The position numbers and the translations under genes are program-made. A stretch of DNA of 64,000 nt, from the NCBI GenBank assembly GCA_963695555.1, contig CAVOGR010000007.1, positions 256,001-320,000 on the forward strand. The letters run 5' to 3'. Source of the DNA: an uncultured Gemmatimonadales bacterium (GTDB lineage Bacteria > Gemmatimonadota > Gemmatimonadetes > Gemmatimonadales > GWC2-71-9). The notes under the pieces were generated by a model. It had not been told where the DNA came from and ran no database searches. It worked only from the letters and a program-made list of their open reading frames with translations. Within the stretch, counting starts at the first letter, position 1; each line of letters begins with the position of its first letter. Below are positions 2,528 through 8,955 of this stretch, piece by piece.

Positions 2528-3223
2528 ATGAGACTGACAATGTGCGGATACTATGTCGACAAACTATCGGGCCCGCGCCTCCGTCAATGCTACCAGATAG
2601 CACCGCCGCGCGTACAGCAGTACCTGGAAGCCGAGATTCAGTTTGTACTCGAACACCTCGAACCCCAAGACACTGTGCTGGAACTCGGGTGTGGATATGG
2701 TCGGGTAGCGGCGCGGCTCACGGAACCGGCTCGTCGTGTGGTTGGAATCGACACGTCTACCGAGAGCATAGCGCTAGCCCGCCAACTCTCGGGTGCCAAC
2801 CCGCGATGCGCGTTTCTGGTAATGGACGCGCTGACATTGGGATTCGACGAATCAATGTTTGACAAGGTCGTCTGCGTCCAGAACGGAATCTCTGCCTTCG
2901 GCGTGGACCAGGAGGCGCTATTGCTGGAAGCACTGCGGGTTGCCCGGCCGGGCGGCCAGGTCTTGTTCTCGACTTATTCAGAACGTTTCTGGGCGCATCG
3001 CCTCCAGTGGTTCGAGGCCCAGGCGGCCGTCGGCCTGATCGGAGCGATCGACTATAACAAGACGGGGAATGGGACAATCCTGTGTAAGGACGGCTTTCGC
3101 GCCGGCATCATGTCACCAGAAGCCTGGCACTCGCTCACGGCTGCTTTGGGGGTAGATGCCACCATCACCGAGATAGATGAATCGAGCGTCTGGTGTCAGA
3201 TTGCAGTGGGGAGTAGGGAGTAG
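2528..3223 (+). CDS. Class I SAM-dependent methyltransferase
   Basis: VLELGCGYG motif I, VGIDTS, FDKVVC, RVARPGG. Confidence 0.9.
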   Translation: MRLTMCGYYVDKLSGPRLRQCYQIAPPRVQQYLEAEIQFVLEHLEPQDTVLELGCGYGRVAARLTEPARRVVGIDTSTESIALARQLSGANPRCAFLVMDALTLGFDESMFDKVVCVQNGISAFGVDQEALLLEALRVARPGGQVLFSTYSERFWAHRLQWFEAQAAVGLIGAIDYNKTGNGTILCKDGFRAGIMSPEAWHSLTAALGVDATITEIDESSVWCQIAVGSRE

Positions 3224-3298
3224 GGAGTAGGGAGTGGGGAGGCGGAAAGGCAGAAAGTCTGAGAAGTCGGGAAGCGCTCGCAATGGAGGCATGCAGAC

Positions 3299-4816
3299 AT
3301 GAACCGACACGCGGCCGGTCTGGCCGGGCTCCTTGTGAGTCTATTCCTGTGCGCAACCCCCGCCCGCGCGCAGGCCACCATCGGCGGCGAGTGGCGGGAT
3401 GACGTGGCGGCGTTCGCGCGGCGGATCGTGGAGGCAGGCCTCACCCCAGGGATGGGAGTCGCAGTCTCCCAAGGGGACTGGGTCCTCTACTCGCAGGGCT
3501 TCGGCGTGGCCGACGCCTCCACGAGCAGGCCGGTCGATGAGGCAACAGGATTCTACATTGCCTCGACCACGAAGGCCCTGACCGCAACGGCAGTGGTGGT
3601 CGAGGCTACCAAGGGCACGATCGACCTGGACGCCCCGATCGACCGGTACGTTCCGGGCCTCACCTTCCGCGCCCCGATGGATGCGCACCGGGTGACCGTG
3701 AAGCAGTTCCTCACCATGACGGACGGGCTCGAAGACGGCGGACCGGTCGTGGTTCGGACCGCCTACACCGGCGACTTCACGATCCCGCTCCTCATTCGCC
3801 TCCTCGCCGGTTACGGGCCGGACCCGAACGGCACCGCGTTCTCCTACGACAACCTGCCCTACAACATCCTCGGCCTGGCCCTCGACCCGACTTCCGAGGA
3901 GGGTTGGAAGGACGCCGTGCGGCGGGACGTGCTCGATCCGCTCGGCATGCGGGAAACAAGCGCGCGTATCTCGTCGATGGACCCGGAGCGGATCGCGCTG
4001 CCCCACACGCTCGTTCCCGGCACGGGGTGGCGCCGAGCGCCGCTCGCCAAGGAGGACGCCAACCAACACGCGGCCGGAGGACACTTCGCCACCGCCCGGG
4101 ATCTAGCTCGCTTCGTCGCCGCCCACGCGAGCGGCGGCCTGCTCGAAGGACGGCGGGTGTTCCCGCGTGCCGCGATCGAGTCGACCCATGCCCAGCACGC
4201 CGTGCAGGACCGCGAGTTCGGCCCATACCACCGCTTCGGCTGGGGCTACGGCTGGGATCTTGGATCGTACGAGGGGAAGACCATCGTACACCGCTTCGGT
4301 GGGTTCACCGGCTATCGCAGCCACGTCTCGTTCGAGCCCGAGTCGGCGGTCGGCGTTGTCGTGCTGGTGAACGGCAGCGGCCCCGCCTCCGCGGCCGCGG
4401 ACCTGATGGCGACGTACATCTACGACCGGTTGCTCGGCCGCGTCGACTTGGCCCCAGAGTATGATCGGCGCCTCGCCGACCTCGACACGCGAACGGCGGA
4501 GCGCACCAAGGCGGCGGCCGACCACCTGGCCGAACGCGCCGCACGGATGGCACCCCTGCCCCACGCACTCGACGGCTACGCCGGCAGCTACCAGAACCCG
4601 AAATTCGGCGAGATGACGTGGCGGGTGGTGGCGGACGGGCTCGAGGTCAAGATGGGGGTGGCCGCAAGCCGTGCCGAAGTGTTCGACGCGGCGAAGGACC
4701 AGCTCCGGGTCGAGCTGTTCGGCGGAGGCAGTGTGGCGTCGTTCGAGTTCCCCGCGGGCGGTGGTCCGGCCACTGCGGTCACGATCCACGGGGAGCGATT
4801 CGAGCGGACATATTAG
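3299..4816 (+). CDS. Secreted serine hydrolase (class C beta-lactamase/S12 family) with C-terminal extension
   Basis: Signal peptide ending ARA; SxxK (ASTTK), FSYDN, AAGG, YGWD. Confidence 0.9.
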   Translation: MNRHAAGLAGLLVSLFLCATPARAQATIGGEWRDDVAAFARRIVEAGLTPGMGVAVSQGDWVLYSQGFGVADASTSRPVDEATGFYIASTTKALTATAVVVEATKGTIDLDAPIDRYVPGLTFRAPMDAHRVTVKQFLTMTDGLEDGGPVVVRTAYTGDFTIPLLIRLLAGYGPDPNGTAFSYDNLPYNILGLALDPTSEEGWKDAVRRDVLDPLGMRETSARISSMDPERIALPHTLVPGTGWRRAPLAKEDANQHAAGGHFATARDLARFVAAHASGGLLEGRRVFPRAAIESTHAQHAVQDREFGPYHRFGWGYGWDLGSYEGKTIVHRFGGFTGYRSHVSFEPESAVGVVVLVNGSGPASAAADLMATYIYDRLLGRVDLAPEYDRRLADLDTRTAERTKAAADHLAERAARMAPLPHALDGYAGSYQNPKFGEMTWRVVADGLEVKMGVAASRAEVFDAAKDQLRVELFGGGSVASFEFPAGGGPATAVTIHGERFERTY

Positions 4817-5089
4817 GCCAGCGCCGGTTTCATTAGCGATTCACCGTCTGCCACCAAGACTGCATCGAGGACTAGGGAATACCCTAGTGGACGTCCTCGT
4901 GCTGTTGACAGCGAATACCTCGCGCCGCAGTGTATGAACGAAGCGTCGCACGAGGGTACGACGATGAGAATGCGAGGGACCGAGTGGCGACCTGGTGACC
5001 AGTGCTCCGAGTCTGGCCGGGTTGCCGCTCGGTTTTTCCATTGTCTCGCCGCCTCATGAACACGTCACCATTTCGTAGGAGATACCACA

Positions 5090-6046
5090 ATGCCAAAGGC
5101 ACCAGAGGCCGAGTTTCTGACAATTGCCGCCATCCGGAAGCCGAAGGGCAGGCGTGAAACAGAATATCTATTCAACGAAAAGCAACGAATCTTCACCTTC
5201 CGGTCGAAATCGAAGACAGCGGCGGCAGCAGCGGAGCGGCTGAAGGAAGCCTTCGAGAAGAAGCGGCCGGTCAAGGCCCGGCTCGATTTGCGGAAGGGCT
5301 TCATTCGACGCATCTCCAAGCCGACGGCCAAGGAGCTGGGCCAGTTCGAGCGCAAGCGCACCTTCTTGGCGGACGCCGCGCGGCCGCGCCGGATCGAGGT
5401 CGCCAAGATCGATCCGACGACCTTCAACATCGTCGACCACTACCTCAAGCACCCGGTGTTTCGGCTCTGCCGCCGCGTGGTGCCGAGTTACAAGAGCGCC
5501 AAGAACATCTTCGACTTCTGCGCCAAACAATCGTGTCACTTGCCGGGACCGTACGACATCTCGCCGTGCATCCCGTTTCAGTACGTCCCGGACGGCTGTT
5601 ATGCACGGGCCCACAAGATGCGGTGGATCATCACCACCCGGTATCGCTACTGCTGCGACAAGGTGTTCAGCTTCGCCAACCAGGACGACGACTCCCTGGC
5701 GGTCCAGGCCAACAAGTGGGGCGGATGCTGTATCACCTGGTGGTATCACGTGGCGCCGCTGATCCGGGTGCGCATTCGGTTCTCCCGGCTGCGCAACCTG
5801 AGCGTGGTCCTCGCCATGGTGATCGACCCCAGCATGTTCGACAAGCCGGTGCTGCTCAGCACCTGGCTGTCGGCCCAGGAGAATACGGCCTGCCATCCCA
5901 ACGCCCACGTGTCGATGTACTCGATCCAGCCAGGATCGGCCTATTGGCCTGCCAGCTATGACGGCACCACGTTCGGCACCGATCCGACCTACACGTTGAC
6001 CGATGGGACACTCACCTCGTACCGGAACCTGGTGTCTTGTCCGTGA
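5090..6046 (+). CDS. Protein-glutamine glutaminase-like enzyme with N-terminal pro-domain
   Basis: CIPFQYVPDGCYARAHKMR (catalytic Cys), WWYHVA (His) and IDPS (Asp) match the Chryseobacterium protein glutaminase motifs as I recall them; RBS AGGAG upstream. Confidence 0.88.
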   Translation: MPKAPEAEFLTIAAIRKPKGRRETEYLFNEKQRIFTFRSKSKTAAAAAERLKEAFEKKRPVKARLDLRKGFIRRISKPTAKELGQFERKRTFLADAARPRRIEVAKIDPTTFNIVDHYLKHPVFRLCRRVVPSYKSAKNIFDFCAKQSCHLPGPYDISPCIPFQYVPDGCYARAHKMRWIITTRYRYCCDKVFSFANQDDDSLAVQANKWGGCCITWWYHVAPLIRVRIRFSRLRNLSVVLAMVIDPSMFDKPVLLSTWLSAQENTACHPNAHVSMYSIQPGSAYWPASYDGTTFGTDPTYTLTDGTLTSYRNLVSCP

Positions 6047-6074
6047 GGCGGAAAGGAAAGGAAGTGGGGTTGCC

Positions 6075-6350
6075 GTGAACGGGTCGAATAGGGCTGGCCG
6101 AGAACAGCCCCATTACCGGATCATGCAGGTTGCACAGGTCCGCGAGCCGGAGGGGGCGGACCACGTAGACGTCGTTTTCCTCGAGTCCGCCCGTTTCTAT
6201 CGCCTCATGAAGACCAATGCGACGTTTGCCGAGTCGTACGCGCTGCTGAGGGAGGCGCTGGCCAAGGGTGAGTTGCTCACGATCCGGTTGGCGTCGTTGG
6301 AAAGCGACGTGATCGAGGGGGTGGCGGCGGCAGGGGGTGAGGAGTCATAA
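6075..6350 (+). CDS. Small protein homologous to the protein-glutaminase pro-domain
   Basis: Gapless alignment with residues 12-65 of the upstream ORF (15/54 identical by hand count); GTG start at 6075 after a purine-rich RBS, alternative ATG at 6123. Confidence 0.75.
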   Translation: MNGSNRAGREQPHYRIMQVAQVREPEGADHVDVVFLESARFYRLMKTNATFAESYALLREALAKGELLTIRLASLESDVIEGVAAAGGEES

Positions 6351-6364
6351 AGGCGGGAAGGCGG

Positions 6365-6479
6365 AAGGCGGAAAGGACTGACGGCGGTTGGGCGGGTGGG
6401 CGGGTGGGCGGGTGGGCGGCTCGGGGTCTTCTGCTGTGACCATCGAACCGCCGAGCCGATCCGCCGCTTGTGAGGAGTG
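6365..6479. repeat. Dispersed repeat, copy 2, with expanded GGGCGGGT octamer
   Basis: Matches 2283-2385; seven G3 runs at 6390-6416. Confidence 0.9.
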
Positions 6480-7418
6480 CATAATGTGACCGACGATGAG
6501 CTCGCGCTTGGTCTCGAGGCCCTCACCGGGCTGCTCGACGAGTTCCGGCAGGGACACATCGTCGACCTGCGCGCCGAGCGGGCGGGCATGGAGCGACACG
6601 CCGGGCGGCTGACGGCCCGATGGAATGCCAGGTTTCCCGGCTTTCCGAGCGAGCACTTCCCATACACGTCGTTTTGGGGCGAGCACTACCGCGGGCGGCG
6701 CGACGCCTTCCTGAAGCGCATCATCGTCCAGCTGTTGGCTCACAACCGTGCGGCCGAGACCACCATCGTCAACCCCGCATGCGTCTTCGGGCGACACGCG
6801 CGCGACCTTGCCTCGCGGCTGCCGCATGCCAGGGTCATCGCGACCGATATCGACCCGACTTGGGCACGGATATACCGGCTCCTGAGAGTCGGTCGCATGC
6901 CGGCCAACTACTCGTTCGTCCAGGACAACATCTTCACGCCGCACTACGATATCCGGCCGACAGCCGTGGTCTTCTTTGGGGCGTGTGGTGCCGTCTCGGA
7001 TGCGGCCCTGGACTATGCCATCGACTCCGGTGCCTCCTACGTGGTGTGCCGTACCTGTTGCCATGACAACATCGGCGGCAACGTGGCGGTGACCAAGCGC
7101 GCGAACAACCTGAACCGCTTCTTCAGACTCAAGAACTGGGCCTATGGGAGGATGAAGTGGAAGGCCAGGTACGCGGGCTACTACTTCTCCGACAAGTACC
7201 CGCGGAACCTCTACCCGAGAAGCGAGGCCGCTCGGCGGGTGAGCAACGCGGATGAGTTCCAAGCCGTTGCCAGGGATTCTCCCGAGAGCGATATCTGCCG
7301 GGCAATCATCGACCTGGACAGATACTTGGTCCTGGTGGAGAGAGGATACAGCGTCCACTATCAGGGCGAGTCATTCGTGGCGGAACGACGGGCCCGCCAC
7401 TGCGAGGGTACTCGTTAA
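6477..7418 (+). CDS. Putative atypical SAM-dependent methyltransferase-fold protein
   Basis: IVNPACVFG, VIATDID, FFGACG and CRTCC pattern; coding-like codon usage. Confidence 0.55.
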   Translation: MHNVTDDELALGLEALTGLLDEFRQGHIVDLRAERAGMERHAGRLTARWNARFPGFPSEHFPYTSFWGEHYRGRRDAFLKRIIVQLLAHNRAAETTIVNPACVFGRHARDLASRLPHARVIATDIDPTWARIYRLLRVGRMPANYSFVQDNIFTPHYDIRPTAVVFFGACGAVSDAALDYAIDSGASYVVCRTCCHDNIGGNVAVTKRANNLNRFFRLKNWAYGRMKWKARYAGYYFSDKYPRNLYPRSEAARRVSNADEFQAVARDSPESDICRAIIDLDRYLVLVERGYSVHYQGESFVAERRARHCEGTR

Positions 7419-7433
7419 GGAAGAGGTGAACAG

Positions 7434-8375
7434 ATGGCTATCGGACACCGCAGGGTTCGAGGCCTCGGCCGCGCTGTCGTGCTGGTCATGTCCTGCCTGA
7501 TCTCGTTCTCCCACTTGGAGGCGCAAAAAGAATACGGGGTGAGACAGCTCACCGATGATCCGGCCCAGGACGGATACCCCTCATGGTCCCCGGACGGGCG
7601 CTCGATTCTCTTCTCCCGCTATGGAGGAGACGACGCGCCGGAGAAGACCGGTCTCTGGTTGGTGTCGCCGGACGGAGGTGAGCCGCACCGCTTGACGACC
7701 GTCATCGGTGAGCATCCCGATTGGTCGCCCGATGGCCGCTATATCGCATTTGACGGGGACTTCGGCAACAGTATCCAGCTGGTGTCGGCGTCCGGCGGTA
7801 CTCCCATACGCATCGTTCCGGCGTCGATTCCGGTGCTGCGCGGCGGGCAACCGAAATGGTCGCCGGACGGCACGCGCATCGCCTTCAAGGAGGGATCGAA
7901 CCTCTGGGTGCTCGAGCTATCGACCGGTCGGCTCGAGACGATCTTCAGCGAGGCGGGCAAGGTCCCCATCCCGACCGGCTGGGCGACCGATGGCACGGAG
8001 ATCTACGTCTCGCTCCGGGAAGGGCCCGAGAACCCGAATTCGGCCCTCTGGGCGATCTCCGTGGATGGGCACGGCAAACGGAAGCTGACGCTCGAGCAGA
8101 AATCGCGTTACCCGTACGCCGACCTGTCACCGGACGGGTCTCTCATGGCCGTGGTGTGGTGTGAAGGCCGCAACTGTGACCTGTGGGTCATGCCGTCCAC
8201 CGGCGGGAAGCGGGTACAGATCACCTCGCACCCCAGCTACGATGACGGACCATCCTGGTCCCCCGACGGGATGAGGATCGCGTTCGTCAGCCGACGATCC
8301 GGCAACTTTGACATCTGGATGGTGGACGTCGATGTCGAACGGGTGCGTCGCGAGCTGAAGCAGCTGGAACCGTGA
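7434..8375 (+). CDS. TolB-like PD40/beta-propeller secreted protein
   Basis: Repeated PxWSPDG motifs; N-terminal signal-like segment. Confidence 0.9.
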   Translation: MAIGHRRVRGLGRAVVLVMSCLISFSHLEAQKEYGVRQLTDDPAQDGYPSWSPDGRSILFSRYGGDDAPEKTGLWLVSPDGGEPHRLTTVIGEHPDWSPDGRYIAFDGDFGNSIQLVSASGGTPIRIVPASIPVLRGGQPKWSPDGTRIAFKEGSNLWVLELSTGRLETIFSEAGKVPIPTGWATDGTEIYVSLREGPENPNSALWAISVDGHGKRKLTLEQKSRYPYADLSPDGSLMAVVWCEGRNCDLWVMPSTGGKRVQITSHPSYDDGPSWSPDGMRIAFVSRRSGNFDIWMVDVDVERVRRELKQLEP

Positions 8376-8481
8376 TCTGCCCGGATGTCCACTGGGGCCC
8401 ACCAAGCGCATGCACCCGCCGCGCGCGAGCCCGCTCAACTGAGTCCAATCGCTAGCCGGCGGAGCGCCTGTGGCTGGTAGC

Positions 8482-8955
8482 ATGCATACCAAAGAGCCGC
8501 TCACTTGCACCGAAGGCGCGCGGCGTGAGTTCGCGCGTCTCGTCCGCCAAGGCTTCGAGACCTCGAATGACGGCTTGGATAGCCGTCTTCGGAATGCGAA
8601 GTGGCTTGCGTTCTACTACGCGCCGGGTGATACGCTCGAAGCGGTCGCCGCCCTCAAGGCGCCAACCGAACGGTATCGGGAGGAGGTTTTCAGCAAGGCA
8701 GGCGCAGCTGTCAATCCTGCGGATTACCCACTCGAGCTTGGCTGGGTCTTCGTCGTTCCGGCCCACCGCGGGAACCGGATCGCCGAGAGCCTTTGCCCAC
8801 AACTCGTGGAGCGTGTGCCGACGCCCGCTGTTTTCGCGACGACCCGCACAGACAACGCTTCCATGAGGAGGATTCTCACCACGCTCGGCTTTACCCGAGT
8901 CGGTACGCCCTATCCATGGCGCAACGAAGAGCTTGTACTATTCCTTTGGTCCTGA
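8482..8955 (+). CDS. GNAT family N-acetyltransferase
   Basis: VFVVPAHRGNRIA acetyl-CoA motif; NASMRRILTTLGF. Confidence 0.8.
   Translation: MHTKEPLTCTEGARREFARLVRQGFETSNDGLDSRLRNAKWLAFYYAPGDTLEAVAALKAPTERYREEVFSKAGAAVNPADYPLELGWVFVVPAHRGNRIAESLCPQLVERVPTPAVFATTRTDNASMRRILTTLGFTRVGTPYPWRNEELVLFLWS

Follow-up and report, generated by a model that had tools for sequence, protein, structure and literature searches.

The 64,000-nucleotide stretch analyzed here (the window), which comes from contig CAVOGR010000007.1 of an uncultured Gemmatimonadales bacterium, carries a pair of adjacent genes. The first, open reading frame (ORF) A, codes for a homolog of pro-protein-glutaminase (pro-PG; PG, protein-glutaminase), and the second, ORF B, codes for a small protein that is a free-standing paralog of the N-terminal pro-domain of that same enzyme. 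Below, the tethered copy of this domain is called the cis copy and the free one the trans copy. The features of the pair are collected in Table 1.

Table 1. Features of the enzyme gene and the small gene, in window coordinates
Feature	Position	Strand	Basis
AGGAG Shine-Dalgarno-like motif, 8 nt 5' of the enzyme ATG	5077..5081	+	read from sequence
Enzyme gene (ORF A), leaderless pro-protein-glutaminase homolog, 318 aa	5090..6046	+	ORF, Pfam, PDB matches
Cis pro-domain, residues 8-80, OB-like (four strands, helix, two strands)	5111..5329	+	secondary structure, profile, hhalign
Cis loop N29-E30-K31-Q32-R33, between strands 25-28 and 34-36	5174..5188	+	alignments
Ordered linker, residues 81-125, invariant D108-P109	5330..5464	+	pLDDT of at least 90; invariant alignment columns
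Catalytic PG domain, residues 126-318	5465..6043	+	PG homology
Putative triad codons C170, H220, D246	5597-5599, 5747-5749, 5825-5827	+	alignment to pro-PG
Putative purine-rich Shine-Dalgarno-like stretch, ~10 nt 5' of GTG 6075	6054..6064	+	read from sequence
Small gene (ORF B), free-standing pro-domain paralog, 91 aa from GTG 6075	6075..6350	+	ORF, homologs, model, profile
Alternative ORF B start ATG 6123, 75 aa	6123..6350	+	ORF
Trans loop E21-S22-A23-R24 (75-aa numbering), A23 codon 6189-6191	6183..6194	+	conservation, pro-PG alignment

The enzyme and the free copy of its pro-domain

ORF A codes for a leaderless protein: its ATG is the first start codon past an in-frame stop, so that no signal peptide can be added upstream, and its N terminus is not hydrophobic, either by eye or under a crude hydrophobicity rule. 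Residues 137 to 262 match the Pfam family PF18626 (Gln_deamidase_2; protein-glutaminases, EC 3.5.1.44) with a score of 80 bits against a cutoff of 25 (E = 1.7e-22), and the Chryseobacterium PG chains 3a54, 3a56, and 2zk9 match residues 125 to 313 with E values of ~1e-21. Relatives of the enzyme were gathered by a scan of one genome per species, which returned 500 matches; the best 80 of these 500, spanning 46 to 94% identity, were kept as loci for analysis of the family. C170, H220, and D246 of ORF A correspond by alignment to pro-PG chain residues C156, H197, and D217, which upon subtraction of the 114-residue pro-sequence become Cys42, His83, and Asp103 of mature PG. This Cys-His-Asp triad, which we take to be the catalytic one, is intact in ORF A, and none of the three residues varies among the 73 aligned relatives. 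The same residue types are given for the PG active site in the accessible portion of PMC9396377. The catalytic domain has the PG fold, and residues 2 to 318 of the ORF A model superpose as one rigid body on residues 19 to 287 of 3a56, an arrangement in which the cis pro-domain would cap the active site as the pro-region of pro-PG does.

The closest known proteins are the pro-PG of Chryseobacterium proteolyticum (3a56, 3a54, and 2zk9) and the Flavobacterium PG (8z3i). Compared with pro-PG, to which it is ~24 to 28% identical, the window enzyme has no signal peptide, carries a Gln at the position of Ala47, possesses an ordered and conserved linker, and belongs to a separate clade distributed over many phyla. 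Its score against the NCBIfam equivalog NF040782 is 107 bits, below the 250-bit cutoff. It represents a subfamily distinct from the secreted PG of the Chryseobacterium type (hereinafter, canonical PG). Eight noncatalytic cysteines (C127, C149, C160, C188, C213, C214, C268, and C317) are invariant in the leaderless clade, and most of these catalytic-domain residues (window 5465 to 6043) are also found in secreted PG; they may form disulfides, which would be odd for the cytoplasm, or bind metal.

The reading frame of ORF B is open from 6003 to 6350. Because the position of GTG 6075 is the start in four of the seven homologs retrieved by a word-based search, and because an Arg two residues ahead of the internal Met is kept across the small-protein family, we prefer the 91-aa form. 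The protein lacks a signal peptide, matches no Pfam family, has no DNA-binding domain, and finds in NCBIfam only a subthreshold match to the pro-region part of NF040782 (E = 0.11); its own genome holds no second copy. Searches with the single sequence were uninformative, the word-based search yielding only those seven relatives. The PDB matches were spurious ones, between designed repeat proteins and residues 3 to 30 of the longest ORF B frame, a stretch that looks untranslated.

Direct comparison with BLASTP aligned residues 5 to 82 of ORF A with residues 36 to 114 of ORF B, with 19 of 79 positions identical, one gap near the end, and an E value of 9e-6 for this single comparison. When family alignments were compared with hhalign (74 small proteins against residues 1 to 95 of 78 enzymes), the two families were matched with a probability of 98.8% and an E value of 7.5e-17 over 71 columns. 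A profile of the small family (72 sequences), run against 177,635 distinct PDB sequences, recovered only 3a56_A, the wild-type pro-PG (residues 34 to 91; E = 2.1e-5), and 3a54_A, its A47Q mutant (E = 8e-4); the enzyme profile matched pro-PG residues 35 to 109 (domain E value of 4e-4) as well as the catalytic domain. The small protein is thus a true paralog of the N-terminal domain of ORF A and, as a reading of the window from sequence alone (the sequence-only reading) had proposed, a free-standing copy of the pro-domain.

Structure prediction agrees with the sequence searches. The ORF B model, with a predicted local distance difference test (pLDDT) score of 88.7, adopts the pro-domain fold, as had been anticipated: its top three Foldseek matches in the PDB are the pro-PG chains 3a56_A, 3a54_A, and 3a56_B (TMq of 0.79 to 0.80, root mean square deviation of 1.9 to 2.1 Å over 71 to 72 columns), with an E value of 1.2e-3 that is borderline for a domain so small. 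The fold resembles the oligonucleotide/oligosaccharide-binding (OB) fold, and the next fold matches are the B subunits of AB5 toxins, CipA, and SilF. By sequence profile as well as by fold, then, the pro-region of Chryseobacterium pro-PG is a homolog of both the cis domain and the small protein.

Searched against 1.84 billion representative proteins at an E value of 1e-3 or less, the small-family profile retrieved 346 clusters; among the 150 listed, 148 are 54 to 128 aa in length. Two members, P0236 (215 aa) and P0258 (235 aa), reach two to three times the normal length; the former has two matched stretches, and both may be tandem or fused forms. Across the family F19 is the sole invariant column, with V17, E21, S22, A23, Y26, L42, and I64 nearly invariant.

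The relationship between the two copies was examined by maximum likelihood, with the quick method only, on 74 alignment columns covering 75 cis domains and 74 small proteins. In the resulting tree, 74 cis rows fall into a single group separate from the trans rows, the canonical cis row lies on a long branch among the trans rows, and the cis/trans label changes 2 times versus ~50 times in shuffles. A recent local duplication or gene conversion was rejected on this ground, since the separation of cis and trans rows points to an old duplication and not a local one. The earlier notion of a duplicated propeptide thus survives as paralogy, with the local event replaced by an ancient, family-wide duplication. 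Pairwise distances among the enzymes correlate with those among their partners (r = 0.62), a value reached by 0 of 999 permutations in a Mantel test. A contrast in charge between a basic cis and an acidic trans copy, likewise pointed out from the sequence, is pronounced in the window (net charge of +14 versus -4) but does not extend to the family as a rule: the cis domain is the more basic one in 54 of 68 pairs, and the small proteins average -0.1 (25 positive and 30 negative), so that the contrast is a tendency only.

Conservation, localization, and mobility of the gene pair

The survey of downstream genes covered the 79 loci that have DNA beyond the enzyme gene (locus L016, in which the contig ends at the gene, was left out). 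In 77 of them, a match to the small protein lies directly 3' of the enzyme gene on the same strand, in accord with the expectation that the small gene would be conserved beside glutaminase homologs. The loci come from more than ten phyla, the enzyme hosts being Gemmatimonadota, Acidobacteriota, Planctomycetota, Verrucomicrobiota, Alpha-, Beta-, Gamma-, and Deltaproteobacteria, Actinomycetota, Nitrospirota, Chlorobi, Cyanobacteria, Bacteroidota, Chloroflexota, and one metagenome-assembled genome (MAG) of Bathyarchaeia. Locus L031 has its small-protein match 2.9 kb off, behind three inserted genes. Downstream of the enzyme in L074 there is no small-protein match, tandem repeats of ~44 nt being present at 5934 to 6200 instead. 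Clustering of ORFs of at least 90 aa from the 80 loci revealed no other recurrent neighbor family; apart from the enzyme itself, clusters that recur in more than six loci consist solely of shadow ORFs that lie within its gene. The L031 insert (5940 to 8828 of that locus) codes for proteins of 784, 110, and 92 aa, the first of which is Trp-rich and the second membrane-like. In the closest relative, from the same genus (L004; 94% identity), the enzyme gene and the small gene are each split into two frames in the assembly as deposited (5001 to 6291), which may be an assembly error or real decay.

The pairing extends to the canonical, Chryseobacterium-type PG. Of 301 genomes sampled from the family to which a true member of NF040782 belongs, 26 have a PG above the curated cutoff, and in 22 of these 26 loci a partner gene follows on the same strand, 25 to 76 bp downstream. 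The canonical partner is a protein of ~101 to 118 aa that matches the small profile with E values of 1e-8 to 1e-4. Its hydrophobic leader ends in a Cys-containing lipobox-like motif, giving it the look of a lipoprotein, and its loop reads G-I-S-(A/P/Q)-Q-V-F-Y. The remaining canonical loci, L122, L123, L125, and L126, returned no match to the small profile. Two unusual architectures were also seen. One is a 497-aa Bacteroidota protein (L095, 787 to 2280) whose C-terminal PG domain is preceded by an N-terminal region with the zinc-protease-like motif HExxH; the locus yielded no small partner, and a PG and the protease that activates it may be fused in this protein. The other is a frame of at least 795 aa (L097, 961 to 3345) in which pro-domain-like residues 95 to 152 and a PG domain at residues 178 to 298 are followed by a long C-terminal extension. 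We found no published account of a PG partner gene, which is not proof of novelty, as most of the PG literature is in subscription journals; in the C. proteolyticum genome paper, the words downstream, upstream, adjacent, and inhibitor are all absent.

Export signals were scored in 76 loci by a crude rule (at least 9 hydrophobic residues per 12-residue window of the N-terminal extension) combined with inspection by eye. Neither the enzyme nor the partner carries a signal in 63 of the 76 loci, the window pair being of this type, and both carry one in 10, which come from Chitinophagaceae and two deltaproteobacterial MAGs. Three loci do not fall into these two classes: in L065 the enzyme has a signal and the partner, leader-like by eye, is just below the threshold; in L069 the N terminus of the enzyme lies off the contig and the partner has a signal; and in L074 the enzyme has a signal and the partner gene is absent. 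Signal peptides are present on both canonical PG and its partner. Since the signals covary, the enzyme and the small protein would be expected to work in the same compartment, and this shared compartment supports a direct partnership between them.

The gene pair has the features of an accessory element. Only 1 of 300 other genomes sampled from the phylum of the window has the enzyme, and that genome is of the same genus. Between the window and the same-genus genome G425, the cassette is 87% identical in DNA, and the surroundings differ: window 3299 to 4816 and the genes at 6477 to 8375 have no match in the collinear stretch of G425. The lack of a match to these three flanking genes in that stretch of G425 places the cassette in a hypervariable region, and its rarity in the phylum together with the differing surroundings suggests that it is accessory and was horizontally acquired. 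The unmatched genes are a signal-bearing beta-lactamase-family gene (3299 to 4816; PF00144, E = 4e-58) and, at 6477 to 8375, a weak methyltransferase-like ORF and a PD40 beta-propeller gene. Sequences of 30 to 130 nt at window ~1975 to 2250 and 3205 to 3275 occur in dozens of copies scattered over G425; they look like repetitive extragenic palindromes or miniature inverted-repeat transposable elements and flank the variable region with the cassette. Just past the stop codon of the small gene (window 6383 to 6424) is a G-rich, G-quadruplex-like tandem of ~four copies of GGGCGGGT. Several metagenome runs contain short contigs that match here and nowhere else in the window, so that the tandem may be a dispersed repeat.

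With regard to transcription, metatranscriptome contigs from two libraries bridge the gene junction (X4, 5060 to 6248; X11, 5900 to 6178) and derive from relatives that are ~87 to 91% identical; they are compatible with co-transcription of the two genes but are not proof of it. The search for promoter-like sites found none, and the number of terminator-like sites, two, does not exceed that in shuffled sequence. No sequencing run contained half the words of the stretch, and a habitat was not assigned.

The distribution of the pair bears on the further proposal of the sequence-only reading that it is a toxin/antitoxin- or effector/immunity-like module. In such a module, whether of the toxin-antitoxin, abortive-infection, or effector-immunity kind, the deamidase would poison conserved cell proteins and the small protein would neutralize it. 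PG-like deamidase folds do occur in bacterial effectors, according to the available text of PMC3498931. A two-gene cassette with no other conserved neighbor and with the second gene in the downstream position typical of immunity genes would fit, but the window pair matches no PADLOC family at an E value of 1 or less, and the partner has neither a Pfam domain nor a DNA-binding domain of the kind found in antitoxins. The patchiness is of the expected sort, with one occurrence among those 300 genomes yet a spread over more than ten phyla at 46 to 94% identity and a cassette region that varies between two genomes of one genus; however, such conservation of the catalytic domain would be unusual in a toxin, the mean pairwise difference among relatives being 0.315 and the average identity ~68%. 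Moreover, among the 80 loci there is no delivery domain or conserved secretion-system neighbor, the N-terminal domain of the enzyme being the pro-domain itself, and the same pairing is seen in the secreted, nontoxic PG used in industry. We consider such a module quite unlikely and do not retain this part of the proposal.

The pocket loop and the proposed action of the small protein

The PDB sequences of wild-type and A47Q pro-PG differ at chain residue 47. In the 2011 work of Hashizume, a loop of the pro-PG pro-region reportedly covers the active site as a substrate mimic, with Ala47 just above the pocket, and A47Q mutants are said to have given an enzyme-substrate complex and an S-acyl intermediate, with which the titles of the article and of the PDB entries agree. 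Ala47 aligns with A23 of the small protein, within F-L-E-S-A-R-F-Y, and with Q32 of the window enzyme (codon 5183 to 5185), within L-F-N-E-K-Q-R-I-F. Among 72 small proteins, the four positions of the trans loop are occupied by Glu (68 sequences), Ser (70), Ala (70), and Arg (64), which makes E-S-A-R the most constrained part of a domain that differs at 60% of its positions between pairs. The loop of the tethered copy is relaxed by comparison: of 73 enzymes, 40 have Gln at position 32, and the others have Ala (13), Glu (12), Pro (5), or His (3). A strict trans loop combined with a relaxed cis loop is what would be expected if the free copy binds the invariant active site unaided and the tethered copy is helped by its linkage. 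These counts also speak to the idea that the small protein is a substrate, with a glutamine of its own deamidated by the enzyme. The reported mimicry of a substrate by the pro-region loop, again in line with the titles of the Hashizume work, would be in keeping with it, but the pocket position of the small protein is nearly always Ala. Since the small family has no conserved Gln, we rejected the idea and hold it to be highly improbable.

At position 32 of the enzyme, Gln is found in 40 of 60 leaderless enzymes versus 0 of 13 signal-bearing or probably signal-bearing ones. These 13 have A (8) or E (5) and come from few clades, so that the counts are not independent; the 12 enzymes with Glu comprise 7 leaderless and 5 signal-bearing ones. 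Given that Gln32 lies at the A47Q position, that Gln is confined to leaderless enzymes, and that an encoded Glu equals the product of deamidation, one might conceive of the cis cap as both plug and substrate. Once folded, the enzyme would deamidate Gln32 or form a transient thioester with it, and this reaction would serve as a one-shot chemical timer that loosens the cap and hands the site over to the nonreactive Ala-loop partner. We regard this as speculative and unlikely. If this is true, the abundance of a small protein that is produced separately would govern the activity of the enzyme, and the pair would constitute a new post-translational toxin-antitoxin-like switch derived from one duplicated pro-domain.

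We favor another interpretation, to which we assign a probability of roughly 55%: by analogy with Spi, which acts on SpeB (see below), the small protein would be a trans-acting pro-domain that caps the active site of the enzyme. Its retention beside the enzyme in nearly all of the relatives surveyed, the industrial type included, suggests that it is probably a second, detachable off-switch. According to the available text of PMC13139226, the pro-PG of C. proteolyticum is inactive until the propeptide is cleaved, the activity of B. helcogenes PG rises 17-fold on cleavage, and the cleaved propeptide remains on mature PG, its removal needing 4 M urea; this persistence indicates that a free pro-domain can bind in trans. 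The locus can then be conceived of as a self-contained, horizontally spread two-gene cassette. The first gene would supply a leaderless, cytoplasmic PG-family enzyme that deamidates protein-bound glutamine and has a pro-PG-like build, in which the cis loop N29-R33 lies over the Cys170-His220-Asp246 pocket and is followed by the ordered linker and the catalytic domain. The second would supply the free pro-domain, the E-S-A-R loop of which sets Ala23 at the position of Ala47 in pro-PG. Docking in trans on the active-site face of the catalytic domain, the small protein would block the active site, and possibly also stabilize the domain, whenever the tethered pro-domain is displaced or removed. 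In the compartment where the enzyme resides, the producer would thereby have a second off-switch that can be titrated. Of this picture, the homology, the fold, the domain arrangement in the model, the adjacency of the genes, the covariation of the localization signals, and the conservation of the loop are observations, and binding, inhibition, and release of the cis domain are predictions.

The lipase-specific foldase Lif is a steric chaperone encoded beside its enzyme, and pro-domains are often folding catalysts. Like Lif, a separate polypeptide that does the job of a pro-domain, the small protein might be a dedicated folding helper acting in trans rather than an inhibitor, templating or stabilizing the catalytic domain. 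Its downstream position in one apparent operon and its presence in the compartment of the enzyme fit such a role, as does the lipoprotein-like canonical partner, which is what a membrane-anchored foldase would be. A comparable division of labor is described in the accessible text of PMC3286405, where a separately expressed pro-peptide yields active Streptomyces transglutaminase. In these steric-chaperone cases, however, the enzyme lacks a cis copy or the split was engineered, whereas here cis and trans copies coexist, and every aligned relative of the enzyme retains its own cis pro-domain, which would make a second folding template redundant. In addition, recombinant pro-PG is made actively in foreign hosts without the partner, as stated in the available text of PMC13139226, and the strongest constraint in the small protein falls on the substrate-mimic loop. 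We therefore view a pure folding role as rather improbable.

Several points nevertheless weigh against capping of the active site in trans. The main weakness is that the cis pro-domain already fills the active site in the model; its release in the leaderless clade is a prediction, and the ordered and conserved linker argues against its easy removal. The role of Ala47 at the pocket is assumed from what the 2011 work of Hashizume reportedly showed. The partner follows the enzyme into the exported compartment, unlike Spi, and the charge complementarity of the cis and trans copies is not general. Its absence from L074, together with its escape from detection in 4 of the 26 canonical loci, implies that it is dispensable in some lineages. 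Pro-domains are also not absolute inhibitors, as the B. helcogenes pro-PG is partly active with the propeptide attached (available text of PMC13139226). Finally, the small protein might contact the cis pro-domain, forming an OB-like pseudo-dimer, or another surface of the enzyme, and so act as a regulator or activator that pulls the cap or as a substrate adaptor; we think this unlikely.

Relation to known systems and significance

The nearest precedent for a trans-acting pro-domain is the SpeB-Spi pair of Streptococcus pyogenes. Spi is a propeptide analog whose gene lies beside speB and is co-transcribed with it, and it is a specific inhibitor (Kagawa et al. 2005, as related in the available text of PMC2873492). 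Both there and here, a papain-fold cysteine enzyme with a propeptide is accompanied by an adjacent small gene for a propeptide homolog. Unlike Spi, which guards against a secreted protease, the small protein described here accompanies a deamidase, and the two proteins are both cytoplasmic or both exported; the PG pairing is family-wide across phyla and not restricted to one genus, and inhibition is, in the present case, a prediction. Further similarities are offered by the staphostatin-staphopain and Bacteroides Bfi-Bfp systems, in which the inhibitor gene sits directly beside the gene for a cysteine enzyme in one operon, the Bacteroides inhibitors being predicted to be exported like their proteases (PMC2873492, in the same portion). 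The staphostatin and Bfi inhibitors are lipocalin-like and unrelated to a propeptide, whereas the PG partner is a propeptide paralog.

Propeptide-like inhibitor genes are therefore already known. Three features are new: a partner accompanies its enzyme throughout the PG family, the industrial type among them; tethered and free copies exist side by side in a clade that is cytoplasmic and has been transferred widely; and the pocket position contrasts Gln or Glu in the cis copy with Ala in the trans copy.

PG is an industrial food enzyme, and should the partner prove to be a natural inhibitor that binds tightly, or an aid to folding, this would bear directly on the yields of PG production, the protocols by which the enzyme is activated, and its physiological role. 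More broadly, the family includes a predicted cytoplasmic protein-glutamine deamidase, furnished with cis and trans caps, that appears to have been spread by horizontal transfer into more than ten phyla. It may offer a clean natural case of one inhibitory domain that exists in a tethered and a free form with a simple chemical difference between them.

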